DNA of 64,000 nucleotides from a virus (Duplodnaviria; Caudoviricetes). Below, in pieces: positions 7,921 through 63,809 of this stretch (position 1 is its first letter; the number at the start of each line of letters is the position of its first letter). Below the pieces are notes generated by a model. The model saw nothing but the letters and a program-made list of their open reading frames with translations, was not told the origin of the DNA and did not search any database. The position numbers were made by a program, and so were the translations under genes. The stretch spans positions 38,033 through 102,032 of the IMG/VR virus record IMGVR_UViG_3300013947_000027. One strand, given 5' to 3'.

Positions 7921-7948
7921 CCATAATAGGGCCTGTAAATTTCGCGAA
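7921..7948 (-). promoter_or_regulatory. 28-bp conserved promoter-like motif, copy 1
   Basis: TTCGCGAAATTTACAGGCCCTATTATGG. Confidence 0.8.
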
Positions 7949-8737
7949 TTATCTACAGCTATTAAATCCGCGTTTCGGAGCAACCGCATAGTCAATGACA
8001 ATACAAGGCACACCGTCCGTATCAAGTTGCGCACTAAAATCAAGCTCGATCAATCCACGAGCAACATTCCAACCAAGATCATCACCAATGCTCACACCAT
8101 CTAGATCAAGAGCATAGTAGAATTCGTTAAGAGAAATATAATCCTCACCGTTGACCATTTGTCGATTAAGCTCATTAACATTTCTCTTAATTGTCTCGAT
8201 GTCAGATACGAATCTTCGCTTAGTGATAGTGTCAAAGCATCGAGTCTTACCGTTCCCACTCACAATAATTGTGGAAGGATTTGCAGGTTCTTTCTCGATA
8301 CGATCCTTAGCAAGCTTCTCACGGATTGTCTGCTCTTTCTTCTCGCCAACAGTCTCAATAACCTTCTGCTTATACTCTGCAAGCGCAGTTGTGGACAGGT
8401 TGTATGCTGTAGCAAGAGCAGCATTGCGCTTAGAATGCACCGAGCTCGCACCAATCAGGCATGCAACAGAGGTGACACCCGTAATTGCTGCAGGAATGTA
8501 GGGTTTCCATGCTGCCTTAACCGTTTCAAGCTTAGTGAGATGATCGTTATGTTCGTTTTCAGCTTTCTTATCTTCAGCCTCAGCAATAAGATCCAAAGCC
8601 TTCGGTGTAGCAGAAACTGCCAGGATTGTTGTGGTGATCATGCCAGCGATACCGAGTCCAGTTAAAATCTCTGGACTATGGTTAGATAAAACTGTTTTAA
8701 CGCTTTTAAACAGTGCTGCCATGTTGGGTTTATTCAT
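7949..8737 (-). CDS. DUF6353-like protein, paralogue 2
   Basis: NHSPEILTGLGIAG...ISLNEFY...LGW. Confidence 0.75.
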   Translation of the reverse strand: MNKPNMAALFKSVKTVLSNHSPEILTGLGIAGMITTTILAVSATPKALDLIAEAEDKKAENEHNDHLTKLETVKAAWKPYIPAAITGVTSVACLIGASSVHSKRNAALATAYNLSTTALAEYKQKVIETVGEKKEQTIREKLAKDRIEKEPANPSTIIVSGNGKTRCFDTITKRRFVSDIETIKRNVNELNRQMVNGEDYISLNEFYYALDLDGVSIGDDLGWNVARGLIELDFSAQLDTDGVPCIVIDYAVAPKRGFNSCR

Positions 8738-8775
8738 ATACTTTCCTCCTTAAAATTAAAAGTAAAAGAGCCCGA

Positions 8776-8937
8776 TTAGGACCCTTTTACCTGTTTAGTA
8801 GTGACTTCCTTCACTTCTTTAGCGACAGCTTCTTTCATCTCATCGCTAGATATCTTGCTATTGATGAGGGTAGCAACCCCCGCCAACACAAGTGCTCCAA
8901 GCTTAAGACCTGTCTTGATAGCCTTCGTTTTATCCAT
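8776..8937 (-). CDS. Small single-TM protein, 53 aa (cassette 2; MDKTKAIKTGLKLGALVLAGVATLI...)
   Basis: Hand-translated; AAAGGAG RBS directly after motif copy 2; stop lies in the terminator hairpin at 8764-8788. Confidence 0.8.
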   Translation of the reverse strand: MDKTKAIKTGLKLGALVLAGVATLINSKISSDEMKEAVAKEVKEVTTKQVKGS

Positions 8938-8955
8938 GATAGAACACACTCCTTT

Positions 8956-8983
8956 CCATAATAGTGGCTGTGAATCTCGCGAA
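8956..8983 (-). promoter_or_regulatory. 28-bp motif, copy 2
   Basis: TTCGCGAGATTCACAGCCACTATTATGG. Confidence 0.8.
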
Positions 8984-9796
8984 CTAGTATTCGAGGTAGC
9001 CTATGACTGGTTCCATTGGAAAATGAATAATCGTGCATTCTAATCCTTGACTTTCTTCAGATTCCTCGTCAATGACTATCTCCTCGTAGTCAAATTCGAT
9101 CCATGGATGCCAGTACATTTCCTCGATCTGACCGCAAGCCCATCCTACATTTTCATACTCTGGCTTCTGCTCCAAACCAAGAAGTTCGTAATATTCGTTG
9201 AGACAAACAGCGCCATTAACGTACATAGCTCTATTAGCCTCATACTGAGCCCACATGACAGTCTCTTTGGTTGATTCGAAGTATCTTCCTGAATAGAAAT
9301 CGTAGAATAGTTCTTTGTTATTGTCAGATAAATCTACGTCACCCGCATACTTGTCTTTAGCGATCTCGCCACGAATGTTCTTGCCAGCTTCTTCTCCATA
9401 CAATTCGTCCGTTTTCTTCTTATACTCCTTATAAGAATTGTCAAGTAACGCATACGCACTCATAAGAGACGCCTGCTGACGTTTACTAATAACGTTAGAT
9501 CCGAATATGCACACAATTGTAGCAGCTCCAGTAATTATAGATGGGATGTAAACTGGGCCGGCTATTTTGATTTTTTCCCATTTGGTTAATTCTTCTCCTT
9601 TCTTCTCTTTTGCATCTTCAAGTAACGATAATGCTTTCGGTGTTTCTTTGGCTACCATAACTGCTGTAGTTACTACTCCAGTTGCACCTATACAAGTTAA
9701 TATTGTAGATGCGTTACGTTTAATGAATTGTTGTAAATCCATTTCTTTCCACTCCTCGGGTTTAGGGTATGTGTCAAAAATAAAAGAGAGAATCAA
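8984..9796 (-). CDS. DUF6353-like protein, paralogue 3 (true start probably MDLQQF, a little downstream)
   Basis: RNASTILTCIGATG...VCLNEYY...VGW. Confidence 0.75.
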   Translation of the reverse strand: MILSFIFDTYPKPEEWKEMDLQQFIKRNASTILTCIGATGVVTTAVMVAKETPKALSLLEDAKEKKGEELTKWEKIKIAGPVYIPSIITGAATIVCIFGSNVISKRQQASLMSAYALLDNSYKEYKKKTDELYGEEAGKNIRGEIAKDKYAGDVDLSDNNKELFYDFYSGRYFESTKETVMWAQYEANRAMYVNGAVCLNEYYELLGLEQKPEYENVGWACGQIEEMYWHPWIEFDYEEIVIDEESEESQGLECTIIHFPMEPVIGYLEY

Positions 9797-9974
9797 TCAT
9801 TCCACTCGAAGGACGCCGATATTTCCCTCAGGCTCATGGTCAATCTTTCGATTGAGCTCATCTTTTCAGATCTAGCCTCGTTCATAATCTTTCGATTATT
9901 ATCTCCTTCCCGATGCGGTACCAATGATTGTTGGCCCTCCAACTTCACTGCCCTTTCGAGTGTTATATTCTCTC
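9782..9974 (-). ncRNA. Putative structured ncRNA A (cassette 3)
   Basis: 5'/3' closing helices GAGAGAAT/ATTCTCTC and CACTCGAA/TTCGAGTG, three GAAA-tetraloop hairpins and a 3' U-tract. Confidence 0.7.
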
Positions 9975-10000
9975 ATATTAGGGCCTGTAAATTTCGCGAA
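9973..10000 (-). promoter_or_regulatory. 28-bp motif, copy 3
   Basis: TTCGCGAAATTTACAGGCCCTAATATGA. Confidence 0.8.
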
Positions 10001-10036
10001 CCGTTGATTAGGCGAAAATAAAAAAGAAGGAGCTCA

Positions 10037-10225
10037 TTACTGAGCTTCCTCCTTCTCGTCAGAACTTGCAATGAGGTTCTCCATCTTCTTACTGTTGTAC
10101 TTGAACCATGCAACTTCTGCGCCGACGATGGCCGCATTCAACAGGATCGCACCTTTCCAATGCTTCTTGTAGAATCGGCCAGTCTCCTTACAGAGTTCAC
10201 CATAGTCCTTCCAAAACTGTTTCAT
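10037..10225 (-). CDS. Small protein (cassette 4; MKQFWKDY...)
   Basis: AAGGAGG RBS before the ATG at 10225; terminator hairpin overlaps the stop. Confidence 0.8.
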   Translation of the reverse strand: MKQFWKDYGELCKETGRFYKKHWKGAILLNAAIVGAEVAWFKYNSKKMENLIASSDEKEEAQ

Positions 10226-10250
10226 TTTGAATTCCTCCTTTAATATTCTT

Positions 10251-10278
10251 CCATAATAGGAGCTGTAAATCTCGCGAA
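10251..10278 (-). promoter_or_regulatory. 28-bp motif, copy 4
   Basis: TTCGCGAGATTTACAGCTCCTATTATGG. Confidence 0.8.
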
Positions 10279-10311
10279 AAAAATAAAGAGAAGGAGTCCC
10301 TGTTATAGGAC

Positions 10312-10485
10312 TCACTTCTTCTTTCTAAGTCGCTTGACAATCGTAATGATCAGCCACACGATTAAGCCGAATACGATAAAGTCGCCAAACACGATGATAA
10401 ACCAGTTTCCTGCTGCAATAGAAGCAAACAAGCCAACCACCGCAACGGCGATTAACGCAACGAGCAAAATAATAAATGTGATCAT
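10312..10485 (-). CDS. Two-TM small protein, 57 aa (cassette 5; MITFIILLVALIAVAVVGLF...KRLRKKK)
   Basis: Hand-translated; AAGGAG RBS; terminator at 10291-10317. Confidence 0.8.
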   Translation of the reverse strand: MITFIILLVALIAVAVVGLFASIAAGNWFIIVFGDFIVFGLIVWLIITIVKRLRKKK

Positions 10486-10501
10486 TATTAATCAACTCCT
10501 T

Positions 10502-10529
10502 CCATAATAGGAGCTGTTAATGTCGCGAA
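10502..10529 (-). promoter_or_regulatory. 28-bp motif, copy 5
   Basis: TTCGCGACATTAACAGCTCCTATTATGG. Confidence 0.8.
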
Positions 10530-10531
10530 TT

Positions 10532-10891
10532 TTATATAAGCCGTCTATCAAAAGATGTTTCCCAGCGTTCTTTTGGCAATGGTTTCATCTTAAGACCCCA
10601 CATAATTTGCCTAATAGAGACCGTAGGATATAAGTTGTCAATACATTCTCCAGCACGTTCGTTAAAAAACTCCTCAAACCTGTTATGTAAATACAAGTCG
10701 TCAACTAACCACGGATCTATGTCCGTCCAATACGTCGATTTAGTCTCTTCGTCATATCTTTGCTGGATTACTGCAAGACCTTTCTCGTTTATTTTGAATA
10801 ACGTGCATGTATTATACACAGAATGATCACAAATATATGTGTCGCCATATATAGTTGAATAGATTTCAGGTTTCTTGTAGTGGTATCTCAC
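10532..10891 (-). CDS. Hypothetical phage protein
   Basis: 119-aa ORF, GTG start, AAAGGAG RBS. Confidence 0.7.
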   Translation of the reverse strand: MRYHYKKPEIYSTIYGDTYICDHSVYNTCTLFKINEKGLAVIQQRYDEETKSTYWTDIDPWLVDDLYLHNRFEEFFNERAGECIDNLYPTVSIRQIMWGLKMKPLPKERWETSFDRRLI

Positions 10892-10940
10892 ACTAGAGGG
10901 CTCCTTTCTGGAAAAATAGAAGGGGCCGAAGCCCCCGCTA

Positions 10941-11006
10941 TTACTTAGAACTCTTGCCGATCAAAAATACTCCGACCAACACTAATGTGATTCCAATCCA
11001 CAGCAT
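10941..11006 (-). CDS. 21-aa single-TM micropeptide MLWIGITLVLVGVFLIGKSSK (cassette 6)
   Basis: AAGGAGG RBS; followed by the GGGGC-TTCG-GCCCC terminator at 10912-10936. Confidence 0.75.
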   Translation of the reverse strand: MLWIGITLVLVGVFLIGKSSK

Positions 11007-11037
11007 TATATCATCCTCCTTGATTCTACATTCCGTT

Positions 11038-11065
11038 CCATAATAGGGCCTGTGAATCTCGCGAA
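11038..11065 (-). promoter_or_regulatory. 28-bp motif, copy 6
   Basis: TTCGCGAGATTCACAGGCCCTATTATGG. Confidence 0.8.
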
Positions 11066-11075
11066 ATGCAAAATT

Positions 11076-11218
11076 AAAAGAAAGAGAGGCGGCTCACCTG
11101 TTAACCATTAAGTCACTCCGTACCTCGATAGCCGTCAGCTAAACCTTCAAGGGTGACACCTTATTTCAACGTCGCCGTTTGCACATTTATAACGGTTGTT
11201 TCCGTAACGTCTCTTTCT
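11076..11218 (-). ncRNA. Putative structured ncRNA B (cassette 7)
   Basis: Closing helix AGAAAGAGA/TCTCTTTCT plus U-tract; inner stems CCGTT/AACGG, GTCAC/GTGAC and TAGC/GCTA; no RBS-led ORF. Confidence 0.6.
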
Positions 11219-11244
11219 ATAATAGGGGCTGCTAATATCGTGAA
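11217..11244 (-). promoter_or_regulatory. 28-bp motif, copy 7 (degenerate)
   Basis: TTCACGATATTAGCAGCCCCTATTATAG. Confidence 0.7.
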
Positions 11245-11303
11245 TTGAATGCTCGGAGCAAAAAAGAAGAGGCCATGTTTCCACAGCCTCTGTCTTTCGT
11301 ACG

Positions 11304-11663
11304 TCAGTTCCTACTTCTAAAGTTGAATAACTTATCCATGAACTTCCGTCCCACAGTCGTGGTAACCGTGTTCTCATCCTCGAAGTACAAACTTGCCTTC
11401 ACGCCCCACAAGGTTACGCCGAGCGGCAGAACAATCGCACCAACGTCGATAAGATTCCTAATCAACCGAGCCTTGCGTTCCTCTTTCATCTGTTTCTCGT
11501 TCTGAGATTCAGACGATTCGAGTTTCTCAATCTCGATTGCTCGATCCATCAACTTAGTGACACTGTTCACCACAGCTTCGTATTCCTTACTGGTAGGATC
11601 CAGCTCGTTTGCAGCATCAAGTCTTTCCTCGATTTCCATCTGCAGCTTCGTAGTCATACTCAT
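11304..11663 (-). CDS. Coiled-coil protein with C-terminal hydrophobic segment (cassette 8)
   Basis: AAGGAG RBS; terminator at 11260-11292. Confidence 0.8.
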   Translation of the reverse strand: MSMTTKLQMEIEERLDAANELDPTSKEYEAVVNSVTKLMDRAIEIEKLESSESQNEKQMKEERKARLIRNLIDVGAIVLPLGVTLWGVKASLYFEDENTVTTTVGRKFMDKLFNFRSRN

Positions 11664-11701
11664 ATCGATTCACTCCTTTAATTTCGTCGAACTTATACGT
11701 C

Positions 11702-11729
11702 CCATAATAGAGCCTGTTAATCGCGCGAA
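11702..11729 (-). promoter_or_regulatory. 28-bp motif, copy 8 (overlaps the 3' end of the upstream gene)
   Basis: TTCGCGCGATTAACAGGCTCTATTATGG. Confidence 0.8.
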
Positions 11730-11974
11730 AGATAGTTCTTATCCACAACTTTGAGCATAACAACATTCTTCTTAGAAATAGAATCAATTGTAGCTCCTTG
11801 AAGTTCCAAGAACGGTCTCGGCGGCTCGTCGGGTTCTGAGCGATCAATTCTGAGATAGCCAACTGATTGTTCCTCGACTGTTTTCCTCATTCGTCCCATG
11901 CTAATAAAGATACCGACGAATACTCCGATGATTGCTCCGACCAGCAGAGCGATTCCAATTGCCAAATACTCCAT
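11717..11974 (-). CDS. Small protein with N-terminal TM helix
   Basis: MEYLAIGIALLVGAIIGVFVGIFI; AAAGGAG RBS. Confidence 0.8.
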   Translation of the reverse strand: MEYLAIGIALLVGAIIGVFVGIFISMGRMRKTVEEQSVGYLRIDRSEPDEPPRPFLELQGATIDSISKKNVVMLKVVDKNYLSRD

Positions 11975-12192
11975 ACTTTCTCCTTTCGAAAATTGAAATG
12001 TTTTTCAAAAATTCCTTGGCGGGAAATTTTCGCCTTATAAAAGTAGCATTGTTTTCCGTAACCTACATTCGGATTTTCTAAGCTAGAATAAAAGCGTCTA
12101 ATCTAGGTTAGACGAGCAAAGAGAAGAAAAAACTAAAAGACCTTGATGTAATCTCAATCTTTTAGTCTATTTTGTGTTTGCGTGCATTTGCA

Positions 12193-12312
12193 TTAGCCGA
12201 TATGTACGTCATTAGTTTCATCCTCCATTTTCTTCAGCTCTTCCTTTTTGGTGAGCTTTTCAACGAAAGATAAACCAACATATATCGTAGCTAAAAAAGC
12301 AATATACATCAT
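12193..12312 (-). CDS. 39-aa single-TM peptide (cassette 9; MMYIAFLATIYVGLSFVEKL...)
   Basis: AAAGGAG RBS. An overlapping 16-aa ORF (12162-12212, GGAGG RBS) follows, then a terminator at about 12125-12166. Confidence 0.7.
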   Translation of the reverse strand: MMYIAFLATIYVGLSFVEKLTKKEELKKMEDETNDVHIG

Positions 12313-12333
12313 AGTAAACACACTCCTTTCTTC

Positions 12334-12361
12334 TCATAATATGGAGTGTTAATTTCGCGAA
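12334..12361 (-). promoter_or_regulatory. 28-bp motif, copy 9
   Basis: TTCGCGAAATTAACACTCCATATTATGA. Confidence 0.8.
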
Positions 12362-12434
12362 TTGTAACTAAAAAAGAAAAGGGAATCTGTTAAGACTCCC
12401 TAATCTTTGGTTAGTGGTTGAATTTATGCTAATT

Positions 12435-12515
12435 TTAGAAAATGAATTCGATCGACTGGACACAGCCGTATTCGTCAACAGTGGTAATCTGTTCCGGATA
12501 GCTAATGCTAGTCAT
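12435..12515 (-). CDS. 26-aa peptide MTSISYPEQITTVDEYGCVQSIEFIF (cassette 10)
   Basis: GGAGGAG RBS; terminator GGGAGTC-TTAACA-GATTCCC at 12370-12400. Confidence 0.65.
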   Translation of the reverse strand: MTSISYPEQITTVDEYGCVQSIEFIF

Positions 12516-12567
12516 AGTTAACTCCTCCATATGTAAAATTTAGTTTTTAAATTCCAACCATTTCTTC

Positions 12568-12595
12568 CCATAATATGGAGTGTTAATTTCGCGAA
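12568..12595 (-). promoter_or_regulatory. 28-bp motif, copy 10
   Basis: TTCGCGAAATTAACACTCCATATTATGG; nearly identical to copy 9. Confidence 0.8.
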
Positions 12596-12601
12596 TTCAG
12601 C

Positions 12602-12820
12602 TTAATTAATTCTAGGTTTCTTTCTGTCGCAATAGAATACAGATTCTATTTTAGTCTTTCCTACAAAATATCTATAATCGAAATCGTACTTAGCAGGATT
12701 GAAAGTCCATATTCTTTCACGGCTACCGTCCTCATATATTACGACAATCTCTGCTGTGTCGAATCGTTTATTATTTATAAAACATTTTGAAACAATGTCA
12801 TATAATTTAGGATCCATCAA
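12602..12820 (-). CDS. Hypothetical protein
   Basis: 72-aa ORF coupled to the upstream gene. Confidence 0.7.
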   Translation of the reverse strand: MMDPKLYDIVSKCFINNKRFDTAEIVVIYEDGSRERIWTFNPAKYDFDYRYFVGKTKIESVFYCDRKKPRIN

Positions 12821-13251
12821 ATATTCCGCTCCCTTGTTTCATTTAGCAGCCAAAAGAACCTTCTGTATCTGTCATAGTACATGTCTTTTCCGCAAGGTAT
12901 TCCCATTGCAGTTCTTAAATAAATGTAAGACCGTTCCTCTGTCACTCCTTTTACAATATAGTCGTGCAAGTATGGGTCTGCCTCAAGCGCAGTCTTTTCA
13001 ATTAACTTAATGCGATCTGAATAAAATACTTTCATCATAGCTCTTTGAGCGATTGGATCACTATCGTTAGGGAAATTATTTGTAGGCGTTGCGTCAACCA
13101 TTGACAGTGGTGGATTCTCATTGGAAAGATCCGAGTAAATCTTTTTCCATTCGGGGTATTGTAAGCAGAAGTGCTTTAATTCGTAATATCGGTGCTTGCT
13201 GATCCAGTATTTGTTCTTTGGCGAAATTTCAGCTCTTATCACAGTTGCCAT
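12817..13251 (-). CDS. Putative transcriptional activator (RinA/ArpU-like)
   Basis: ELKHFCLQYPEWKK start and C-terminal HTH-like YYDRYRRFFWLL; lies in the cro operon. Confidence 0.55.
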   Translation of the reverse strand: MATVIRAEISPKNKYWISKHRYYELKHFCLQYPEWKKIYSDLSNENPPLSMVDATPTNNFPNDSDPIAQRAMMKVFYSDRIKLIEKTALEADPYLHDYIVKGVTEERSYIYLRTAMGIPCGKDMYYDRYRRFFWLLNETRERNI

Positions 13252-13390
13252 TTTGACTTTTCTCCTTCGTTTTATTCTTTCTACATTTCTCTGCTTTCTT
13301 TAAGAAAATAATAGTGGCTTCTTCAATCTTTGTTCGATCAACTTCGCCACGTATTCGAACAATCGCATTCTCATATCTGTATTCTTCTAT
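13229..13390 (-). CDS. 53-aa basic protein with non-canonical ATA start (or GTG 9 nt upstream)
   Basis: Hand-translated (I)EEYRYENAIVRIRGEVDR...; GAGGGTG RBS 6 nt before ATA. Confidence 0.5.
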   Translation of the reverse strand: MEEYRYENAIVRIRGEVDRTKIEEATIIFLKKAEKCRKNKTKEKSQNGNCDKS

Positions 13391-13408
13391 AAATGTCACC
13401 CTCTAAAG

Positions 13409-13776
13409 TTGCATTCAACGCAATGGCTAAAATAAGAAAATCTCAAGTGCTTCTTCATCTGTAAGTTCAAGTACGTCTTTCATCTGAATCGCTTCTCCGA
13501 TTGTTATCTTTAGTGGAGCTCGGAGCTTACGATATAACGTTGGACCAGTCATCCCAATAATTTCAGCTAACTGCTCCACATTCATTTCTCGTTCAACGAT
13601 TTTTGCTTTAAGTTTGTTCATGTTCATTTATGTCACCTCTTTCCGTTGCGTTCCGTGCAACACATACAAGATAGCATCGTTTTACTTTTTATGTCAATAT
13701 TTTTTTGCGTAAAATGCAACGTGTTTTATTCTCAGTTTTAAATAATTTGCATACTTGCAATTCTTAGTGTTATACT
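13409..13776. promoter_or_regulatory. Genetic switch: TTGC-N7-GCAA operators and divergent sigma-A promoters
   Basis: Operators at 13409-13423, 13646-13660, 13705-13719 and an N6 variant at 13747-13760. Leftward TTGACA (13697-13692) and TGnTATCTT; rightward TGnTATACT (13768-13776). Confidence 0.7.
13427..13627 (-). CDS. Cro-like XRE HTH regulator
   Basis: MNVEQLAEIIGMTGPTLYRKL; divergent from the repressor. Confidence 0.85.
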   Translation of the reverse strand: MNMNKLKAKIVEREMNVEQLAEIIGMTGPTLYRKLRAPLKITIGEAIQMKDVLELTDEEALEIFLF

Positions 13777-13795
13777 ATCAACTGAAAGAAAGGAA

Positions 13796-14362
13796 GTGCA
13801 TGATATGAACATAGGAAATCGAATAAAAGAAAGAAGAAAAGAACTAAATATGTCAGTTGAGGAATTAGCTAAAAGACTGAATAAAAATCGAACAACCGTT
13901 TATCGCTATGAGAAAGGAGATATAGAAAACCTTCCAATCGACATTCTTGATCCACTAGCAAAAGCATTAGAGACAACTCCGGCGTACTTAATGGGTTGGG
14001 ATAATAAGCCAAATAAAGACACTGCTACAATTGGCGAGTTGCTTAAGATGATGAGAACTAATCGAAACATGACTATCGAGGAATATTCACGAGAGATAGG
14101 TATATCTGCTGAGGATTTACGTATGTATGAATCCGGAGAAAAATACATACCTCTTTCTGTAATCCACACAATTGCGGAATACTATCGTCTTTCACTGGAG
14201 AGTGTCAGAGTAGGTAACCCTGAGGTTAATAAAGAAGGAAATATTCGCCTCGAACGCTTTAAGACTTGGGCTGAAAATTTTGGTGACCTGGAACTTACTG
14301 ATGAGGAGCATGACAAGATTGTTGAGTACACGAAATTCCTAATCTACATAAGAGAAAAATAA
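13796..14362 (+). CDS. CI-like repressor with two tandem XRE HTH domains
   Basis: IKERRKELNMSVEELAKRL...YRYEKG and LKMMRTNRNMTIEEYSREIG...MYESG. Confidence 0.85.
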   Translation: MHDMNIGNRIKERRKELNMSVEELAKRLNKNRTTVYRYEKGDIENLPIDILDPLAKALETTPAYLMGWDNKPNKDTATIGELLKMMRTNRNMTIEEYSREIGISAEDLRMYESGEKYIPLSVIHTIAEYYRLSLESVRVGNPEVNKEGNIRLERFKTWAENFGDLELTDEEHDKIVEYTKFLIYIREK

Positions 14363-14489
14363 AAGAGAATGTGTAGTCTTGTACAGTTCATTTCCTGTCC
14401 GAGAGTCGCTCGGTCTTATTTCTTATATGACGGCATCTCAGCCGACGGGACTTTCACCCGTAACTCATTACTGCTACTTCATTTTCTCC
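14361..14489 (-). ncRNA. Putative structured ncRNA C (cassette 11)
   Basis: Closing GAGAA..ATG/CATTCTC and GTAG/CTAC; hairpins ACGGG-TGAAAGT-CCCGT, CGGC-TGAGAT-GCCG, CCGAG/CTCGG and ACAG/CTGT; U-tract. Confidence 0.7.
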
Positions 14490-14515
14490 ATAATAGAAGC
14501 TGTTATTTACGCGAA
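14488..14515 (-). promoter_or_regulatory. 28-bp motif, copy 11
   Basis: TTCGCGTAAATAACAGCTTCTATTATGG. Confidence 0.8.
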
Positions 14516-14578
14516 GGGAGGTGATGCCTATGTAATCACAGCGCCGCAACGAGAGTAAACTAACAGGAGGAATAGAAA

Positions 14579-16159
14579 GTGACAATATTCGAAAAGAACG
14601 GGATAATCGATAACTCTATGCCTACCCGCATGGATAAATATGTGATTTATTTGCGCAAATCTCGTGCAGATGTAGAAGCCGAGAAACTAGGCGAAGGAGA
14701 AACCTTAGCTCGGCATAAAAAGATACTTACAGAGCTTGCTGCAAGAAAAGGCTTGTATATCGAGAAAATATACGAAGAAATTGTCTCTGGGGAAACCATC
14801 GAGGCTAGACCTGAGATCCAGAAGATGATCAAAGAATGCTATGAGGGCAAATATAAAGGAATAATTATTGTCGAGGTAACTCGTCTGTCTCGTGGTAACC
14901 AGGGTGATGCTCAGACTATTCTAGATTGCTTGAAATATTCGAATCGTAATAATGGGGTGTTAGTAATCACACCGACTAAAACATACGACGTTGCTCACTC
15001 TCAAGAAGATGAAGAATACATGGAGTTTGAATTGTTTATGTCTCGTAGAGAATATAAGATGATTCAGAAGCGTATGGATCGTGGTCGTAAGCAAGCAGTT
15101 GTAGAAGGAAATTTTATGGGAAGCTACAGACCATATGGATATGATATTGTCAAAACTAAAACAAGCAGAACACTTATACCCAATGAAAATGAAGCACCGA
15201 TTGTTAAACAAATGTTTGACTGGTCTGCTAATGAAAATTTGACACCATATAAGATTGCTCAGCGATTAGAGAATATGGGTATTCCTACTTATTATGGAGA
15301 TGGCGAATGGTCGAAAGATACTGTTAAAACTATTTTGACGAATCCTACGTATATGGGGAAAGTTAAGTGGAACGATCGTATGCAAATCAAAACTATGGTT
15401 GACGGAGAGCTTGTAACATCAAGACCTCGATCGAATCATACTGATCACTACATGGAATATGATGGTAAACATAAGAAGTATGCACTAATAGACGAAGAGA
15501 CTTTTAATAAAGTAAGATCTCGATTCGGAGTTGATAGAACAAAGTCAGGGCTTAAGTTAACAAATATATTGGCTGGAATATTCAGGTGCAAAAACTGTGG
15601 ACGTGCAATGGGCTATCAATCATATAAACAACGTAAAACGCCAACTGCTCCAAGATACTTACATGCCGAGTCTCAAAAATGTAAAGTGAAATCAGTTGTA
15701 GCCGATGATGTTTATAAAGCTCTGATTCATGCTCTTAAAATGTATATAGAAGACTTCGAGGTTAAACTTGACAATCTTCCAGAGACAAATGAAAATGAAA
15801 TAGATAAGCAGATAGAGATATTGAATCGAGAGACAGCTAAAATAAAAAGGAAGCTATCTAAACTCTTTGATTCCTGGGAGGATGAGGCTATTACAGACAA
15901 CGAATTTGTCGAACGTAAAGCAGTGCATAATAATCGTATTGAGAAAATTAAGCAACAGATTGAAGATTTGGAATACTCAATTCCAGAAAAAGAAGAATAT
16001 CAAGAAAAGATCATTCTTCTATCTGAAGCTCTTAAAGCTATCAGAGACGACTCATTGGATGCTGATATCAAGAACGAGTATCTTAAGAGAATCATTGATA
16101 CAATAGAGTTTAGTAGAGAAAATAACTCGGAATTTATACTTGATATAACCCTACACTAA
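14579..16159 (+). CDS. int: Large serine integrase
   Basis: YLRKS catalytic Ser motif, VSG, RLSR, PYGY, recombinase domain, CKNCG zinc ribbon and coiled coil. Confidence 0.95.
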   Translation: MTIFEKNGIIDNSMPTRMDKYVIYLRKSRADVEAEKLGEGETLARHKKILTELAARKGLYIEKIYEEIVSGETIEARPEIQKMIKECYEGKYKGIIIVEVTRLSRGNQGDAQTILDCLKYSNRNNGVLVITPTKTYDVAHSQEDEEYMEFELFMSRREYKMIQKRMDRGRKQAVVEGNFMGSYRPYGYDIVKTKTSRTLIPNENEAPIVKQMFDWSANENLTPYKIAQRLENMGIPTYYGDGEWSKDTVKTILTNPTYMGKVKWNDRMQIKTMVDGELVTSRPRSNHTDHYMEYDGKHKKYALIDEETFNKVRSRFGVDRTKSGLKLTNILAGIFRCKNCGRAMGYQSYKQRKTPTAPRYLHAESQKCKVKSVVADDVYKALIHALKMYIEDFEVKLDNLPETNENEIDKQIEILNRETAKIKRKLSKLFDSWEDEAITDNEFVERKAVHNNRIEKIKQQIEDLEYSIPEKEEYQEKIILLSEALKAIRDDSLDADIKNEYLKRIIDTIEFSRENNSEFILDITLH

Positions 16160-16184
16160 AATTGTGTGGGATAATTTTTGCCTG

Positions 16185-16236
16185 TGATGTTCATCATGAG
16201 TGTGTTACTTTTATAGCGCACCCTTGATGCACATCA
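16185..16236. other. Putative attP site
   Basis: 52-bp imperfect inverted repeat (18/23 arm match) centred on TT at 16210-16211, 25 bp after the integrase stop. Confidence 0.7.
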
Positions 16237-16260
16237 TGGGGTTAATAGGAGGAAATATAA

Positions 16261-16512
16261 ATGAGAATTGTATGGAAAGATAGTTCGCCTCACACTAAAC
16301 CTTGGATAACCCTACAGTACAGAGACCATGTTGTGAGCCAATACGGAAAAGGATGGATAACGAATGTACCAGGAGATGACAACATTTACTTTCCTAGAGA
16401 ATGCGCTCTAAACGCAATCGACGAAATGCTAGGCGGCAAGACTCGTAAAGCTAATTCAAAGAGACATGAGCTTGGAATAAAAATAATTGGGAGAAAGGAC
16501 GATGCGTCATGA
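16261..16512 (+). CDS. Hypothetical protein, paralogue of the next gene
   Basis: MRIVWKDS...DDNIY..CALNAIDE. Confidence 0.8.
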   Translation: MRIVWKDSSPHTKPWITLQYRDHVVSQYGKGWITNVPGDDNIYFPRECALNAIDEMLGGKTRKANSKRHELGIKIIGRKDDAS

Positions 16513-16766
16513 GAATAATTTGGAGAGATAGTTGCACACCTAGAGAATATGAACCAATCAAATACAGAAATATTTACATTTTTGGATCTCCTGACGGTTG
16601 GGAAGTAAATATAAAAGAAGATGATAATCTATATAAAAATCATTATTGCGCTAAAAATGCTATAGATGAATATTATGGAGATTTCGGTGAGCATGGTGAT
16701 AAAAAGCGTAAGTCATATGGAATCCAAATCATAGGAGCAAAAGATAGCACGAGGATGAGTTTATGA
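16509..16766 (+). CDS. Hypothetical protein, paralogue of the previous gene
   Basis: MRIIWRDS...DDNLY..CAKNAIDE. Confidence 0.8.
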   Translation: MRIIWRDSCTPREYEPIKYRNIYIFGSPDGWEVNIKEDDNLYKNHYCAKNAIDEYYGDFGEHGDKKRKSYGIQIIGAKDSTRMSL

Positions 16767-16867
16767 ATAAGAAACTAGAAAAGCAAATACAAGAATATTT
16801 GAAGCAAACGCAGTACTGCAAAACAAAGGAACGAATACTGAGACAAAAAGAAGAGGCCCTGTCGTAA
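16763..16867 (+). CDS. 34-aa basic peptide (MNKKLEKQIQEYLKQ...)
   Basis: ATGA overlap with the upstream stop; ends in the terminator. Confidence 0.45.
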   Translation: MNKKLEKQIQEYLKQTQYCKTKERILRQKEEALS

Positions 16868-16886
16868 TTGACAGAGCCTTTTCCTT
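16845..16886. terminator. Bidirectional terminator
   Basis: AAGAGGCCCTGTC...GACAGAGCCTTTT between convergent genes. Confidence 0.75.
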
Positions 16887-17053
16887 TACTTCTTCGAAAA
16901 CTTGGCCTCGATATTCTTCTTAGCTTTCTTTGCTGTCGTTACAACCGCATTGCGAGCTTCAGGCACGAGTGCGACTACCGTAACAATCGGCAGTACAATC
17001 TGCGTAAGCCATAAGCGAGCTTCCCGACTAGCTTCAATATGCTTATATATCAT
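16886..17053 (-). CDS. Small single-TM protein (cassette 12; MIYKHIEASREARLW...)
   Basis: AAGGAGG RBS directly after motif copy 12. Confidence 0.8.
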   Translation of the reverse strand: MIYKHIEASREARLWLTQIVLPIVTVVALVPEARNAVVTTAKKAKKNIEAKFSKK

Positions 17054-17067
17054 AACAATTCCTCCTT

Positions 17068-17095
17068 CCATTAAAGGAGGTGTTAAATTCGCGAA
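17068..17095 (-). promoter_or_regulatory. 28-bp motif, copy 12
   Basis: TTCGCGAATTTAACACCTCCTTTAATGG. Confidence 0.75.
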
Positions 17096-54485: not shown

Positions 54486-54561
54486 TGGAGCCGTTGACAG
54501 GAATCGAACCTGCAACCTGCTGATTACAAATCAGCTGCTCTGCCTATTGAGCTACAACGGC
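54486..54561 (-). tRNA. tRNA-Thr(TGT)
   Basis: GCCGTTG/CAACGGC acceptor stem, GCTGA-TTTGTAA-TCAGC anticodon arm, GGTTCGATTCC T-arm, encoded CCA; 76 nt. Confidence 0.97.
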
Positions 54562-58854: not shown

Positions 58855-59610
58855 TTACGTAGCTGTATAGTTATAGCTGACAGCAGCATTAGTTGCGCCC
58901 CAAGGAGCATTTGCTACTGCACCTTCCGCCCATGGGACGTTGATTGTGGTAAGATTGGTACAGCCTTCGAAAGCGTCGGCTGCAATAGTAGCTGTTGTGT
59001 CTTGGAATGTTAGAGTTGTTAAGCCAGTGCAGTTGCAAAATGCTTTACTGTCTATCGTGTCAACAGATTCGGGAATAATAGTTATTGCAAGTTTTGTGCA
59101 ACCAGAAAAGGCTTCAGTCGCAATACGTCTCAAATTCGGAGGCAAGGAAGTCAAAGTCAAGGACTCACATTGAGAAAATGCATTGTTACCGATTAGCATA
59201 AGACTATTTGGAAGCTTTGGCGTATTAAAGCTAGCGGCCTGTTGGAAAGCTCCTGATGCTATTGTTTCGATAGTATCCGGCAAATTTACCGTGGTAAGCT
59301 CAATACAGAAATAGAAAGCAGATTCATGAATTGATGTTGTGTTGTCTGGGATTGTAACTGTCACAAGATTAGTGCATCCATTAAACAGATTTCCACGAAT
59401 AACAGTTCGTCCATGCACAACTGCCGAGATAAATTTTCCATCTTCATTCAGATTTTCTTCGACATATATCGCAGGAGCTTTTTGAATTCCATTGATAGCA
59501 GTTGTGAAGCCTACCGGAAAGGTTAGCTGGGCAGAATCACCGGTTTTTGTGCGGATTGCATTGGCGACAGATGTGAGATCCGAGCTAGTTACAATATATG
59601 TATCTGCCAT
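58855..59610 (-). CDS. BspA-type leucine-rich-repeat protein
   Basis: About six 23-aa xIxxxAFxxCxxLxxxxxP repeats. Confidence 0.9.
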   Translation of the reverse strand: MADTYIVTSSDLTSVANAIRTKTGDSAQLTFPVGFTTAINGIQKAPAIYVEENLNEDGKFISAVVHGRTVIRGNLFNGCTNLVTVTIPDNTTSIHESAFYFCIELTTVNLPDTIETIASGAFQQAASFNTPKLPNSLMLIGNNAFSQCESLTLTSLPPNLRRIATEAFSGCTKLAITIIPESVDTIDSKAFCNCTGLTTLTFQDTTATIAADAFEGCTNLTTINVPWAEGAVANAPWGATNAAVSYNYTAT

Positions 59611-62600
59611 TAGAAGCTCACCCCATTCGCATTACTAAGTGCCAGTGTAAGCTGGCCTTGATCATTGAATTTGATTGTGGTGCCGTCTACGGGGATAGCT
59701 TTGATTGAGTCATCGACGTATTTCTTAGTAGTAGGGTGATAATCTAATGTTGGGGTGAATGCTGTAGTGTTTGTCGTTGTAAGAACATCGACCGCTTTCC
59801 AAGAAATCGGTTTGTGATCATTCCATGCTTGGACTGATAAAATAGAACCAGTTTTTATGTCACTGTCATTGAGTACATTAAAAATACCATCGCAGTCAAA
59901 GGACTGGAACTCCCAGACTCCTTTAAAGGAGCTATCAACGGATGTAGCGCTTAGTTTGGCTACGATAAGATTATCAGCAGTATACCCAGAAGTTGAGAAT
60001 ACTAAATTATATTTGTCTTTAACCTCATTATAATGCCAGTTAATAAGGATTAGTCCGTATACATTATTTACCACCCTCAGACCTTGATTAGCCGCATCAT
60101 ATATTTCTTTTGCTGTTTTATTGGACGTCCAGTGACTTGGTCCGCTAACAAAATCAACAAGGAACGATTTAGTATTCAATTCAATTTCCTTATCCATCAC
60201 GACAGTATCTGTTGCGCCATTTTGACCTTGAGTGATTTTAAGGCGTTTATAGACACCGTTAGTGGTGGTGGAGAAATAGAGTGAGGGAATATTAGACGAA
60301 TCTTCCTCAGCAAATTCATAGTGGTATGTTTCGCCATCATAAAATAGAGGACAGATGACTTGCGGGTTGTTGTTCGGCATCTTTAGGAATCCAGCACAGA
60401 ATGCAACAGTATTTGTCGGGTCACATGTGAGTGTTCCGTCGTCAGATTTGCTGACTGTTACGGCTTTAATGTTTGGAAGTAGGGTGTTTGTACTGATTGC
60501 GCAAGTAAACTCGATACTAGACGAGCCAGCGCTATATTGCATATTCATATAGTCAGCACTTAGTACAATACCACCGAATCCCTCAGGCGCCGCACTTTCG
60601 TCAATGACCATAGGATATATGGTAGTCCAACGCATATTAATACCTGTGATTTCGCCGCTACTATTTTTCGTTACATTCAAAGCATTCGGAGATAGTAGCG
60701 AGTTGTCCCAGGCTATAGCATAGTCGTTCGGATTCTCGGTCTTCGCAGCAGCTGCTTTGACTTCGTCCCAAGTTCGATCTGTAGACCAGGTTTTGGTATC
60801 TTGGTTGTAAGTTGGGGTGATGATAAATGGTTCTGATGCAGAGATGTATTTTGAAGGAATTTTATGAACAGTAGGATTTCCGACAAGAAAACTGCATTCC
60901 TTTTCTGGATATACAGTAACCACGCTTCCTACAATAACTTGTGCGCTATCGGTTAACTTGTAAAACCATACGCCATCGCTAAATGTTGGGGTAATATCCG
61001 GATATATAACACCATCATATTTAATGGTAAGAGTTTTGCCATATCTGCTAGAATTAGCTCCTCCAACAATATTACACCACATCTCATAATTAGCCGGGTA
61101 TTCTTGAACCTTATCCTCGTAATACATATCAGGAATATATCTAGGATCTATACTATTTGGATTCGGCTCAAACAAGCGTAATTTTACTGCGCTTTCGTTT
61201 ACAAACTGGCAATCGTTTTTATATAAAGAGTGAGTCGAATATATGCAGAAAGGGGGATCATTGGCAAGCGACCCAACATATAGATTACCTTGCGGATCTC
61301 GTTTGACAACTTGATCAAAGTTTAGAAAACTATATGTCTTTCCACTAGTACTGGTATAATATACATAGGCCTTTTGACCAAGAATCATTGGAATCTCATC
61401 ATGCTCTACGTTGTATTTATAATCTGACGTATGCGTCATGTTCGACGTTGGAACTCCAGCATCGTAATCTGTATATTTTGTTCCATTTACATATTCGCTG
61501 TAGTCCTGTCCACCACCTTCAAAAGTCCAGGTGATGGGGGAAAGGACTCCACTATGTTTATATGTAAAATGACCCTTTTTACCGTCAGCTGTTGAAATCA
61601 TATAGGTCCAGGTTGGCATGCTATCATAGATAATATTAATTCTAGTTACGACAACAGGAAAATTGCTTTCGGTTAAACCAAGTATTTCAACAGTATCATC
61701 TGCCGACCCAAATATCATTGTTTGGCCATCATTGCTAACAAGCGATCCGCTTAGTGCGTCCTCATTAAGTACATCTTTATTACCGCCGGCAATATTACGT
61801 CGAATACATAGCAACCCATCCGTGTCGATTGCTGTGTCGTAACTGGAATACCACTTTTTATCATCATCTGACATACTGGACTGATCGTTTAAGTTAAAAT
61901 AACGGCTTACACTCACTGTGCCTCTACCAGAAGATTTTATCTTAGTGGGGTCTGCTAAAGGTAACAAATCTGACGGAATTTCGACCGGATAAGTAATTGT
62001 TAAATATACTTCATCAGGGAGAATAACGCAATCTATGCTGCTTGTGTTTAGAAAATATACTTTAACTCCTTTTGAATAACTTGAATCATTCAATTCGACA
62101 TTGATAGCCAGTTTGTCTTTAACTTGAATCCAGCCAGTAGTATAAGCGCCTCCAGTTGAAATACTCCAGGATGGAGCGTATCGTTTTTCCTTATAATACA
62201 AATACGCACTACATGTTTCATTCGCAATGCCGTTCATCATATCCGCAAATATGGTATCATCGTCTGAAAGTGTCATGTAGTGCATTTCGGCTGGGAGAAC
62301 ATTAGGTGCTATAGTGATAGTAGTGTTATTCTTTGCAGCTTCTTTTTCTGCGTAATGCCCAATCCTATTCTTCACATAACTAGGATCAGTTTCATCGTTT
62401 ACGCTCCAGTCAGCATGTGGAGCATCTACCCACTGATACTCGTAGCGACGGCTCTGCCATTTGTTATCAATAACACCTTCGCCAAGATCAACTGTTGTAA
62501 GCATCTTACCGACTTTATCAGCAGACGGTTTGCCGAGAGAAGTGGCGTTATCTGGAACAGTCGAAATAACCTGGTCAAGATGAACAGAGATAATTACATC

Positions 62601-63809
62601 AGTTTCGGGATTTATTGTAGCATCACTGCAGGTGACTGTCTCGGTTGCCGTGTCGTAAGTAAGAGTGTAGTCAGTAGTAGTGAAGATACCACTCTCAGGA
62701 TCCTTCTTCTGTTCGCTGCGGTACACGTAGATATACTTTGTGCCGTTGACTTCCTTAAGATAGACACCATTATAGTAATTAGTCTTCTTGATGCTGACTT
62801 CCCAGAGATCATACTTGCCAGACTTGGTAAGATCCTTCCAATTAGTATAAGTACCATATTCGGCGAAAGTAGAAGGTCTCACATCATACATTTTCACGAC
62901 TGACTCAGGTCCAATCGAATGTTTTAATGTAGTGACTGTAACTTTATATGTTCCGGGAGTCTTCGTGTAAAGAATACATATAGGAAGACTGGGAGTAAGA
63001 TGCTCACTATCATAATATTGATCTTCAAAGACAAGACACGAGTTTGCTTGTGCATCGTTCGGAGTAGGTGGGACGCTATCAGCATCATTGTACCAGCTCT
63101 TAAGCCTGCTGTTGACTACCGAATAATTGCCAATAATAGTTTGGCCAAGAGGATATCCTGTCGGAGGGATCTTCGCTATTGTTATAGTATCCACATCAAG
63201 ATCTTTAACCTTTACAACGACCATCTGCCCAGGAGAAGGTCTGAAGGTGCATTTGAAAGGTTGAGAGGAAGCGCTAGTCCACTCTGAAGCATCTTCTGCA
63301 AGAGTGGTAGTTACTTCGAGATCTTCGAAGAGCGTACCGACTTGAGCGCCACCAGTAATTGCGCTGGAATTCGGACTACGCCAAGTTTCGAGATCTTCTT
63401 TTGTGATTGTATCGAGTTCAGTTTTGTTGATATGAGTGTGACTTGACTCTTCAAGCTTATCTACACGATTAGAGAGGGCCTGAATTGTGAAATGATCCTG
63501 CTCAGTATAGACATAGTCTTCCGGTCTGTTTCGCTTGATGATGTCGAAATATGTATTTGCAATAGTTTCCTCGCCATCACTGTTTTCGCAAACTTCGTAG
63601 CATAAGAGACGGTTAGACTGCTGAAGAATAATGTTAGGAATTGCGCAATATGTTACACCATCGACAGTGTATGTCTTCAACACGTAGGCGTAATCCATGC
63701 GCTTAGTAGAAAAATGGACTTCATGAACTTTGACGTTCTCATCAGGAACAACTCTGACAATTCGTCCAGTATCCCATTGATACAGTTCACCGCCAACTAA
63801 GCTTATCAT
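59610..63809 (-). CDS. Large mosaic fibre/adhesin with BppU-like N-terminus
   Basis: LYQWDTGR...IPNIILQ...RNRPEDYVY N-terminus; DWSVND...YVKNR and PTTKKYVD fibre motifs. Confidence 0.6.
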   Translation of the reverse strand: MISLVGGELYQWDTGRIVRVVPDENVKVHEVHFSTKRMDYAYVLKTYTVDGVTYCAIPNIILQQSNRLLCYEVCENSDGEETIANTYFDIIKRNRPEDYVYTEQDHFTIQALSNRVDKLEESSHTHINKTELDTITKEDLETWRSPNSSAITGGAQVGTLFEDLEVTTTLAEDASEWTSASSQPFKCTFRPSPGQMVVVKVKDLDVDTITIAKIPPTGYPLGQTIIGNYSVVNSRLKSWYNDADSVPPTPNDAQANSCLVFEDQYYDSEHLTPSLPICILYTKTPGTYKVTVTTLKHSIGPESVVKMYDVRPSTFAEYGTYTNWKDLTKSGKYDLWEVSIKKTNYYNGVYLKEVNGTKYIYVYRSEQKKDPESGIFTTTDYTLTYDTATETVTCSDATINPETDVIISVHLDQVISTVPDNATSLGKPSADKVGKMLTTVDLGEGVIDNKWQSRRYEYQWVDAPHADWSVNDETDPSYVKNRIGHYAEKEAAKNNTTITIAPNVLPAEMHYMTLSDDDTIFADMMNGIANETCSAYLYYKEKRYAPSWSISTGGAYTTGWIQVKDKLAINVELNDSSYSKGVKVYFLNTSSIDCVILPDEVYLTITYPVEIPSDLLPLADPTKIKSSGRGTVSVSRYFNLNDQSSMSDDDKKWYSSYDTAIDTDGLLCIRRNIAGGNKDVLNEDALSGSLVSNDGQTMIFGSADDTVEILGLTESNFPVVVTRINIIYDSMPTWTYMISTADGKKGHFTYKHSGVLSPITWTFEGGGQDYSEYVNGTKYTDYDAGVPTSNMTHTSDYKYNVEHDEIPMILGQKAYVYYTSTSGKTYSFLNFDQVVKRDPQGNLYVGSLANDPPFCIYSTHSLYKNDCQFVNESAVKLRLFEPNPNSIDPRYIPDMYYEDKVQEYPANYEMWCNIVGGANSSRYGKTLTIKYDGVIYPDITPTFSDGVWFYKLTDSAQVIVGSVVTVYPEKECSFLVGNPTVHKIPSKYISASEPFIITPTYNQDTKTWSTDRTWDEVKAAAAKTENPNDYAIAWDNSLLSPNALNVTKNSSGEITGINMRWTTIYPMVIDESAAPEGFGGIVLSADYMNMQYSAGSSSIEFTCAISTNTLLPNIKAVTVSKSDDGTLTCDPTNTVAFCAGFLKMPNNNPQVICPLFYDGETYHYEFAEEDSSNIPSLYFSTTTNGVYKRLKITQGQNGATDTVVMDKEIELNTKSFLVDFVSGPSHWTSNKTAKEIYDAANQGLRVVNNVYGLILINWHYNEVKDKYNLVFSTSGYTADNLIVAKLSATSVDSSFKGVWEFQSFDCDGIFNVLNDSDIKTGSILSVQAWNDHKPISWKAVDVLTTTNTTAFTPTLDYHPTTKKYVDDSIKAIPVDGTTIKFNDQGQLTLALSNANGVSF

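Follow-up and report, generated by a model that had tools for sequence, protein, structure and literature searches.

The 64-kb stretch of DNA analysed here, in the following called the window, is part of the 102-kb IMG/VR virus record IMGVR_UViG_3300013947_000027 (CheckV completeness 100%) and belongs to a siphovirus-like phage of about 100 kb with a tape measure protein of 3110 amino acids (aa). Between a promoter motif and a gene for a DUF6353 protein, the window carries a gene for a pseudoknotted non-coding RNA (ncRNA) of about 190 nucleotides (nt), here termed RNA A. Comparison with homologues in other phages shows that this is a real gene and reveals its boundaries, the fold of its product, its membership in a family and its mobility. 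As judged from sequence comparison, RNA A can be regarded as the first recognised member of an uncatalogued phage RNA family with good comparative support. Coordinates of RNA A and its neighbours are positions of the window, and RNA A is read on the minus strand. Its helices (P), junction strands (J) and flanking elements are as follows:

9973-10000, minus strand: promoter motif copy TTCGCGAAATTTACAGGCCCTAATATGA, with the probable transcription start G9974
9782-9974, minus strand: predicted RNA A transcript; the U-tract continues to 9776
9967-9974, minus strand: 5′ strand of helix P1, GAGAGAAU, partner 9793-9786
9955-9962, minus strand: 5′ strand of helix P2, CACUCGAA, partner UUCGAGUG at 9810-9803
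9811-9953, minus strand: conserved core, closed by helix P2b (GGGC 9953-9950 / GUCC 9814-9811)
9935-9949, minus strand: junction strand J1, AGUGAAGUUGGAGGG, with the family-invariant part AGUGAAGU..GA.G
9921-9934, minus strand: P3 hairpin CCAA-CAAUCA-UUGG, the loop of which (9930-9925) is the pseudoknot strand
9900-9920, minus strand: junction strand J2, UACCGCAUCGGGAAGGAGAUA, invariant.AC...UCGGG
9884-9899, minus strand: P5 hairpin AUAAUC-GAAA-GAUUAU, optional, missing in short forms
9831-9877, minus strand: helix Px (GGCU 9877-9874 / AGCC 9834-9831), enclosing P6 and P7
9871-9860, minus strand: P6 hairpin (ATCT-GAAA-AGAT), inside Px
9855-9840, minus strand: P7 hairpin (UCAAUC-GAAA-GAUUGA), inside Px
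9815-9830, minus strand: junction strand J4, UGAGGGAAAUAUCGGC, invariant.GAG..AA.UA.CG.C
9794-9799, minus strand: UGAUUG, partner strand of the P3 loop in the pseudoknot, located in the P2/P1 internal loop
9786-9793, minus strand: 3′ strand of P1, AUUCUCUC, adjoined by the U-tract at 9785-9776; terminator-like end
9743-9775, minus strand: conserved leader with ribosome-binding site GAGGAG (9757-9752); no promoter copy between RNA A and the gene
8984-9742, minus strand: DUF6353 gene, 252 aa (Pfam PF19880, E = 1.5e-62)

In the proposed architecture, P1 and P2 would form a stalk and P2b would close a multi-helix junction bearing P3, P5 and Px, with P6 and P7 carried in turn by Px. The P3 loop is predicted to fold back and pair with the internal loop that separates P1 from P2. 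An earlier note on this DNA, made from the letters alone, had described a multibranched ncRNA of about 190 nt starting at the third promoter copy and ending in a U-tract, and this description is supported by the fold and by covariation. All motifs listed there were found in place on the minus strand, including both end helices (GAGAGAAU/AUUCUCUC and CACUCGAA/UUCGAGUG) and the three GAAA-tetraloop hairpins at 9899-9884, 9871-9860 and 9855-9840.

The minimum free energy (MFE) of RNA A on the minus strand is −59.9 kcal/mol (z = −4.0, 200 shuffles), while folding of the plus strand of the same stretch gives z = −3.2. The two strands of the window together contain 28 perfect GNRA hairpins; RNA A accounts for three of these within 45 nt, including two of the six window hairpins of this kind with 6-bp stems. 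The single-sequence MFE structure is partly wrong inside the RNA: it gives GUUGG/CCAAC where the conserved P3 is CCAA/UUGG, and it misses both Px and the pseudoknot. A GCC/GGC hairpin and a UCAUUGG/CCAUGA helix of this structure were dropped, as they are broken in homologues. A K-turn considered at P2b was also rejected, since the non-bulged strand lacks the required GA.

Homologues were searched with nhmmer on 52 loci fetched by DUF6353 alignment, followed by searches with patterns from shared segments; contigs are designated by L numbers and were obtained from IMG/VR and from ENA metagenome data. The first homologues were detected by nhmmer in L083/L084 (E = 3e-13) and L078 (E = 2e-6). Pattern searches added L111/L114, L112, L113, L115, L116, L117 and L118, and L108 also proved to be a member. 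Altogether, about seven distinct homologues of 157-232 nt are present in other uncultured phage contigs. They fall into a group of 170-195 nt (the window copy, L111, L112, L115 and L118), a 232-nt form with large insertions in P5 and P7 (L108), and short forms of 157-170 nt without P5 and P7 (L083 and L117). With 157 nt, the shortest member (L083:970-1126) is small enough for direct biochemistry. A model built on the window core and the hand-derived structure (R1) yielded 15 matches, of which 11 are distinct, at E-values between 1e-49 and 8e-9. The bit scores of the window copy are 191 for R1 and 149 for the model R2.

All eight full-length members share P2b, P3, Px, P6, the three junction strands, the flanking promoter and the end-pairing helix P1. 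MAFFT alignments of these members placed hairpin gaps and the pseudoknot out of register; therefore, pairs were counted on the alignment fitted to R1, and the pseudoknot was checked by script. In the six core helices, all 237 of 237 cells are standard pairs, and 15 of the 28 pairs are changed on both sides, so that covariation, proposed earlier as a check on collected homologues, is indeed present. The covariation score of 0.28 compares with 0.07 in shuffles (reached in 0 of 500), and when partners were slid by 1-3 columns as a control, 28-39% of the cells were paired.

Compensatory changes were found throughout the fold. The outer pair of P2b is G-C in five sequences and C-G in three, and an invariant G-U pair in the same helix is compatible with an RNA on the minus strand only. 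P3 occurs as CCAA/UUGG, CCGA/UCGG, CCCU/AGGG and CCUUA/UGAGG, and Px as GGCU/AGCC in the window vs CGCU/AGCG in L083. In P5, four of six pairs are changed on both sides, and in P6 and P7 three pairs each. The P7 stems read UCAAUC/GAUUGA, UAUAUC/GAUAUA and UCGAUAG/CUAUCGA, and another compensated stem of a GAAA hairpin is AUAGU/ACUAU. P2 is missing in L115, L118 and L108; in L083 it reads UAUUCGAA/UUCGAGUA, in which both bases of one pair differ. The pseudoknot (CAAUCA/UGAUUG in the window, 9930-9925 with 9799-9794) has equivalents at the same place in L111 (CAUCA/UGAUG), L083 (GAUUG/CAAUC) and L117 (CAACUA/UAGUUG); in each of the four sequence types with P2, the entire P3 loop is thus complementary to this spot, and compensatory changes preserve the pairing. 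With shuffled loops, such complementarity arises in 1-6% of trials per type. In the three types lacking P2, the P3 loop is GAAG and the internal-loop spacer is missing. The purine-rich junction strands (11-16 nt) are nearly invariant while the helices diverge, and flanking proteins of the member phages are only about 47-55% identical. A further promoter-driven RNA (L106:1420-1580), located in a phage carrying a short form, shares AGUGAAG, GAGGCU, AAUCGAAAGAUUG and GAAUAUCGG with the family; with E = 0.27 for R2 it may be a distant paralogue and was not counted as a member.

The covariation bears directly on the proposal of the earlier note that RNA A acts as a multivalent sponge, or mimics a CRISPR repeat or an antitoxin, by means of its repeated AAUC-GAAA-GAUU hairpins, which we regard as highly improbable. 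In the window copy, a 12-nt hairpin core does occur twice in identical form, along with a third hairpin with a GAAA loop, and the order of promoter, RNA, terminator and gene resembles type III toxin-antitoxin loci. However, the stem sequences covary instead of being conserved, which argues against sequence mimicry of CRISPR repeats. The repeated core is present in the window copy only, and two of the three hairpins, P5 and P7, are missing in L083 and L117. Tandem Repeats Finder (minimum score 30) reported nothing in RNA A, in which only the 12-nt hairpin core occurs twice. Against an antitoxin mimic, the downstream protein belongs to DUF6353 and is no ToxN-type nuclease, and it is paired with unrelated RNAs in close relatives. 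The CsrB-like logic suggested in the same context is not supported either, as the loops are GAAA without a GGA-type protein-binding motif and tandem repeats are absent.

A small protein as product of the locus is almost certainly the wrong explanation. A 51-codon open reading frame (ORF) with GTG start (9948-9793) and an inner 30-codon ORF with ATG start (9885-9793) lie on the transcribed strand, with GGAAGGAG 17 nt upstream of the ATG. A conserved short ORF had been named beforehand as evidence that would speak against an RNA gene, but the inner 30-codon ORF is not conserved: in L111, the closest homologue, and in L112 its frame is altered by an indel of 2 nt in P6, and the start region is missing in the short forms L083 and L117. 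Furthermore, the substitutions are compensatory in helices, not synonymous, and the start codon lies inside P5.

The statement that RNA A belongs to no known family was confirmed by Rfam searches of the window copy and its homologues. With Rfam 15 at gathering score, only a tRNA at 54489-54561 was detected in the window; for 9600-10150, only two chance matches were obtained at E up to 10 (E of 2.1 and 3.7), and no match overlapped the homologues in L109, L113 and L117. ARAGORN found only tRNA-Thr at 54486-54561 in the window, and Rfam likewise gave no tRNA match at 9782-9974. Reverse transcriptase (PF00078) had no match in the 102-kb genome, while control genomes were matched, so that RNA A does not qualify as a retron msr-msd RNA. 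Further homologues were sought more widely. Megablast and blastn against INPHARED phages revealed no RNA A homologue, a two-hairpin pattern matched only two giant-virus sequences by chance among viral contigs, and promoter-pattern scans of viral, genome and metagenome contigs yielded relatives of the phage, none with an RNA A copy. BLAST of 399 Clostridia-class genomes gave short chance matches only. R2 produced one match in 151 bacterial genomes, located inside an FtsK-like coding region, and a weak match in L037 was not counted as it is coding sequence. The family was also not found in the human-gut phage MT835485.1, and a literature search on DUF6353 and related phage RNA cassettes returned nothing relevant.

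The 28-bp promoter motif TTCGCGANATTNACAG…CTATTATG has 13 matches in the window, all on the minus strand, compared with 2.3 expected, and about 26 copies are present in the whole 102-kb genome. The copy at 10000-9973 has G9974 as its end. Transcription probably starts at this G, because in all members P1, with its pairing and its covariation, extends to the G that immediately follows TATTAT/TAATAT. P1 is formed in eight of eight members with differing sequences (−15 to −27 kcal/mol), and the covariation extends into the first six transcribed bases (GAGAGA/UCUCUC, GAAGAG/CUCUUC, GAAAGA/UCUUU). From G9974, the last base of the 28-bp promoter, transcription would proceed to P1 and the U-tract. 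This start is off the position expected from a sigma-70 −10 box. Neither a T7-like RNA polymerase nor a sigma-70 region 2 domain had a Pfam match in the genome. The 28-bp promoter type, found in the window at 7921-17095, is common to a gut/rumen phage clade, MT835485.1 and Arthrobacter phage Nightmare; covariation of end-pairing helices sets its start at the G after TATTAT/TATAAT, unlike a sigma-70 promoter. Some copies show a promoter-proximal terminator in its minimal form, with only a hairpin of about 30 nt and a U-tract ahead of a protein gene (L018 near 7694, L012 near 9267, L037 near 2132, L040 near 4308).

Upstream of RNA A lies a cassette with a 62-aa ORF and its own terminator (10046-10031, T-run to about 10020). 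Downstream, the U-tract 9785-9776 (UUUUAUUUUU) directly follows P1, and no promoter copy separates RNA A from DUF6353. By layout, P1 and this U-tract are therefore the only transcription barrier between the promoter and the DUF6353 gene, the expression of which would require read-through. A second DUF6353 paralogue (7949-8737, within 8983-7949 on the minus strand) also has no promoter of its own; it is preceded by a promoter, a small ORF and a strong terminator (8792-8760). Since both DUF6353 genes lack a promoter and are located behind terminators, both appear to depend on terminator read-through.

Comparison with relatives shows that RNA A is a self-contained RNA cassette, mobile among gut and rumen phages and patchily distributed. 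Six close relatives have DUF6353 proteins of 76-92% identity and keep the promoter and gene leader, but their intervening RNA is unrelated to RNA A: it is about 85 nt long with a tRNA-like T-arm in four of them and about 100 nt long in two. Homology of the window to its nearest relatives stops right after TAATATGAGA, the promoter end, and resumes at the U-tract. The RNA A family was not found in the five nearest relatives (contigs 94-100% complete), while the same model matches the phage's own genome. Of the regions upstream of DUF6353 orthologues, 44 distinct ones were compared: in at least 30, the promoter lies 84-222 nt ahead of the start codon, and about 18 contain a T-loop-like sequence, nine of which are called tRNA by ARAGORN. 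The differing occupants identify the slot before DUF6353 as an exchange site for structured RNAs. The only host clue is a Clostridia metagenome-assembled genome contig from water-buffalo colon that carries the promoter motif.

This slot (L048-L099, about 100-220 nt ahead of position 1501; e.g. L058, L068, L069 and L085) is usually occupied by a tRNA look-alike. Its acceptor stem is lengthened by the 5′ GAGA end of the transcript and runs straight into the U-tract without a CCA end. The anticodon loops are often irregular, and ARAGORN assigns Leu(taa), Leu(caa), Val(tac) or undetermined loops. Phages of Arthrobacter, Gordonia and Streptomyces also frequently carry DUF6353 genes. Ahead of that of Arthrobacter phage Nightmare lies a gap of 396 nt without ORFs (L122:472-867; z = −3.4 for the entire gap), in which the same promoter type (CTCGCGAGAATTACAGGTGCTATAATGAGAAG) occurs three times, each time with a structured RNA behind it. 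A gap of this kind is missing in Gordonia phage Gravy, so the link between RNA and DUF6353 is frequent but not universal. In this general layout, a conserved atypical promoter precedes an exchangeable structured RNA (often a tRNA look-alike that lacks the CCA end), after which a DUF6353 gene follows. The layout is common to Clostridia-associated gut phages and Arthrobacter phages and represents a recombination hot-spot for small-RNA cargo.

The slot is also where the main rival explanation has to be weighed, namely a cis-acting, riboswitch-like terminator responsive to a ligand or factor. The folded junction would bind a metabolite or protein; the helices P2b, P2 and P1 and the pseudoknot would become more stable as a result, and this would set the extent of read-through into downstream genes, here DUF6353. 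The fold is aptamer-like, with invariant junction strands, six covarying helices and a pseudoknot; P1 followed by UUUUAUUUUU is the sole barrier before DUF6353; and at least 30 of the 44 upstream regions, as well as the Arthrobacter phage, hold a structured RNA and a U-tract in this slot. However, in the other seven contexts (seven of eight members) the U-rich 3′ end lies within a few bases of a fresh promoter, leaving no dependent gene, and the downstream genes differ. In addition, no conserved antiterminator pairing was seen, half of the members have a spacer of 6-9 nt between P1 and the U-run, and DUF6353 proteins of 82-92% identity behind unrelated RNAs indicate that the gene needs no particular RNA. 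We consider this explanation rather doubtful.

Many cassettes of the clade consist of the promoter, an RNA with a 5′ GAGA(A/G) paired to its 3′ end, and a U-tract, and some of them are very short hairpins. By analogy, RNA A could be a passive element, that is a stable end-paired hairpin serving termination, insulation or protection of the RNA end without any specific partner. This is unlikely, as it fails to explain the near-invariant junction strands of 11-16 nt, the covarying pseudoknot and the six helices kept across phages. The complex pseudoknotted architecture with an invariant core and dispensable peripheral hairpins would also suit a catalytic RNA, i.e. a self-cleaving or other ribozyme, in which the junction would contain the active site. 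Yet no Rfam ribozyme model matched at E up to 10, no hammerhead-type core was recognised by eye, and no cleavage site or substrate can be named; a ribozyme is therefore very unlikely.

The neighbour genes of RNA A are shuffled across the members, and there is no constant protein neighbour. Together with the fresh promoter after the RNA and its absence from the nearest relatives, this argues for an autonomous cassette that entered the window phage alone. For such an autonomous and patchy cassette, a trans-acting accessory RNA with a partner encoded elsewhere is favoured. As a whole, the reading that RNA A is a mobile accessory pseudoknotted small RNA acting in trans through its junction is held with moderate confidence, in which both the action in trans and the kind of partner are our inference. 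Its function would reside in the nearly invariant purine-rich junction strands, with the GAAA-capped hairpins as exchangeable peripheral struts. The RNA would be made early in infection and present its folded junction to a partner not encoded nearby, most likely a host protein or a small ligand, e.g. a target of host defence or takeover. In the window phage, the cassette has landed between promoter and DUF6353, so that P1 and the U-tract by layout double as a barrier and the gene would be expressed by read-through.

Several observations weigh against this reading of RNA A or the evidence for it. Among the phage's own minus-strand windows of 193 nt, the GC-corrected stability of RNA A ranks only in the top 2.6% (41 of 1596), and therefore folding energy alone is weak evidence. 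The fold is supported by only about seven distinct sequences, and the alignment used for pair counts was fitted to the model and favours the structure, although the compensatory changes are plain in the raw segments as well. Due to the spacer of 6-9 nt between P1 and the U-run in four members, P1 is no textbook terminator family-wide. RNA A in the window is a leader before a promoter-less gene, which leaves room for a role in cis. A search for antisense targets in the phage's own genome returned only chance-level 11-12-mers. Finally, the compact pseudoknotted junction also resembles a ligand-sensing aptamer or a ribozyme.

Complex RNAs with invariant junctions and pseudoknots are rare, and the solved cases are mostly aptamers, ribozymes or RNAs with specific protein partners. 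Moreover, an accessory cassette traded among uncultured gut and rumen phages shows the genomic behaviour of host-takeover or counter-defence genes. It is conceivable, if speculative, that RNA A represents a new class of phage RNA effector, the junction of which acts as an aptamer neutralising a host defence protein or a signalling small molecule early in infection. It would then be an RNA counterpart of protein anti-defence sponges, encoded by a promoter-RNA-terminator plug-in cassette traded between gut phages.

Other RNA cassettes were observed in the phage clade. The window contains a second ORF-free cassette at 11217-11076 (minus strand; ncRNA B), which is conserved in L002 and L031 and has the segment AGCUGACGG in common with a cassette RNA (about 150 nt) in L019 and L038. 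A third one is located at 14488-14361 (minus strand; ncRNA C), and L038 has a cassette with a comparable GAAGUAGCAG…UGAGU segment at its start. A further cassette RNA, about 170 nt long and with two copies of a module of about 45 nt (…GUUGCGAAUAGACGCAAGUGAAAUAUGAGGUUGAUUCG…), occurs outside the window in the phage's own genome (G000:C1 near 26914), near 12704 of L018, and in L032 and L037. At L018:12403-12468 (minus strand), and also in L032 and L037, a promoter-driven tRNA-like RNA with the anticodon loop AUUUAAU, the central triplet UUA of which would read the stop codon UAA, lies directly before a normal tRNA array. Inside the tRNA array of the related phage L018, 12121-12243 (minus strand) is a drum RNA (RF02958; 49.7 bits vs a gathering score of 43). 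Apart from RNAs, the window encodes a 1399-aa ORF at 59610-63809 (minus strand) that belongs to no Pfam family and matches a PHROG of unknown function only weakly, at the N-terminus.

RNA A shares single features with several known systems. CsrB/RsmZ sponges present several similar hairpins with GGA loop motifs in one small RNA; in RNA A, by contrast, the loops are GAAA, one hairpin is left in short members and the stems vary freely in sequence. Type III toxin-antitoxin loci (ToxI/ToxN, CptIN) comprise promoter, ncRNA, terminator and a protein gene expressed by read-through, an order of elements also found at the RNA A locus. However, the tandem direct repeats of about 34-45 nt are absent there, the DUF6353 protein with its membrane-like segments is not ToxN, AbiQ or CptN, and RNA and protein part ways across relatives. 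With terminating riboswitches, RNA A has in common a compact pseudoknotted junction, i.e. an aptamer-like core, a closing helix abutting a U-tract, and in the window phage a position as 5′ leader. In contrast to them, it is not tied to one gene, occurs mostly in stand-alone cassettes outside a leader position, and shows no antiterminator alternative.

The phi29 pRNA (RF00044) is a phage RNA of about 120-174 nt organised around a helical junction, the structure of which is kept while the sequence drifts. RNA A does not match its model, and the phage carrying it is siphovirus-like with about 100 kb, not a phi29-like podovirus. As RNA A is patchily distributed, it is no essential packaging part, unlike phi29 pRNA. 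From the lambda promoter PR′, the 6S transcript of about 190 nt reaches the promoter-proximal terminator tR′, and the downstream genes need read-through. RNA A is likewise a short promoter-to-terminator RNA with a read-through gene in the window phage; lambda 6S RNA, however, is not known as a conserved folded module, whereas RNA A is a mobile cassette with a conserved junction. A Q-like antiterminator was not found for RNA A, with no search aimed at one. Like drum RNA (RF02958), ROOL and GOLLD, which are orphan structured RNAs of phages or metagenomes, RNA A is phage-borne, ORF-free and supported by covariation. It matches none of the three in sequence or model, is much smaller than ROOL and GOLLD, and has an architecture of its own, composed of a stalk, a junction and a loop-to-internal-loop pseudoknot.

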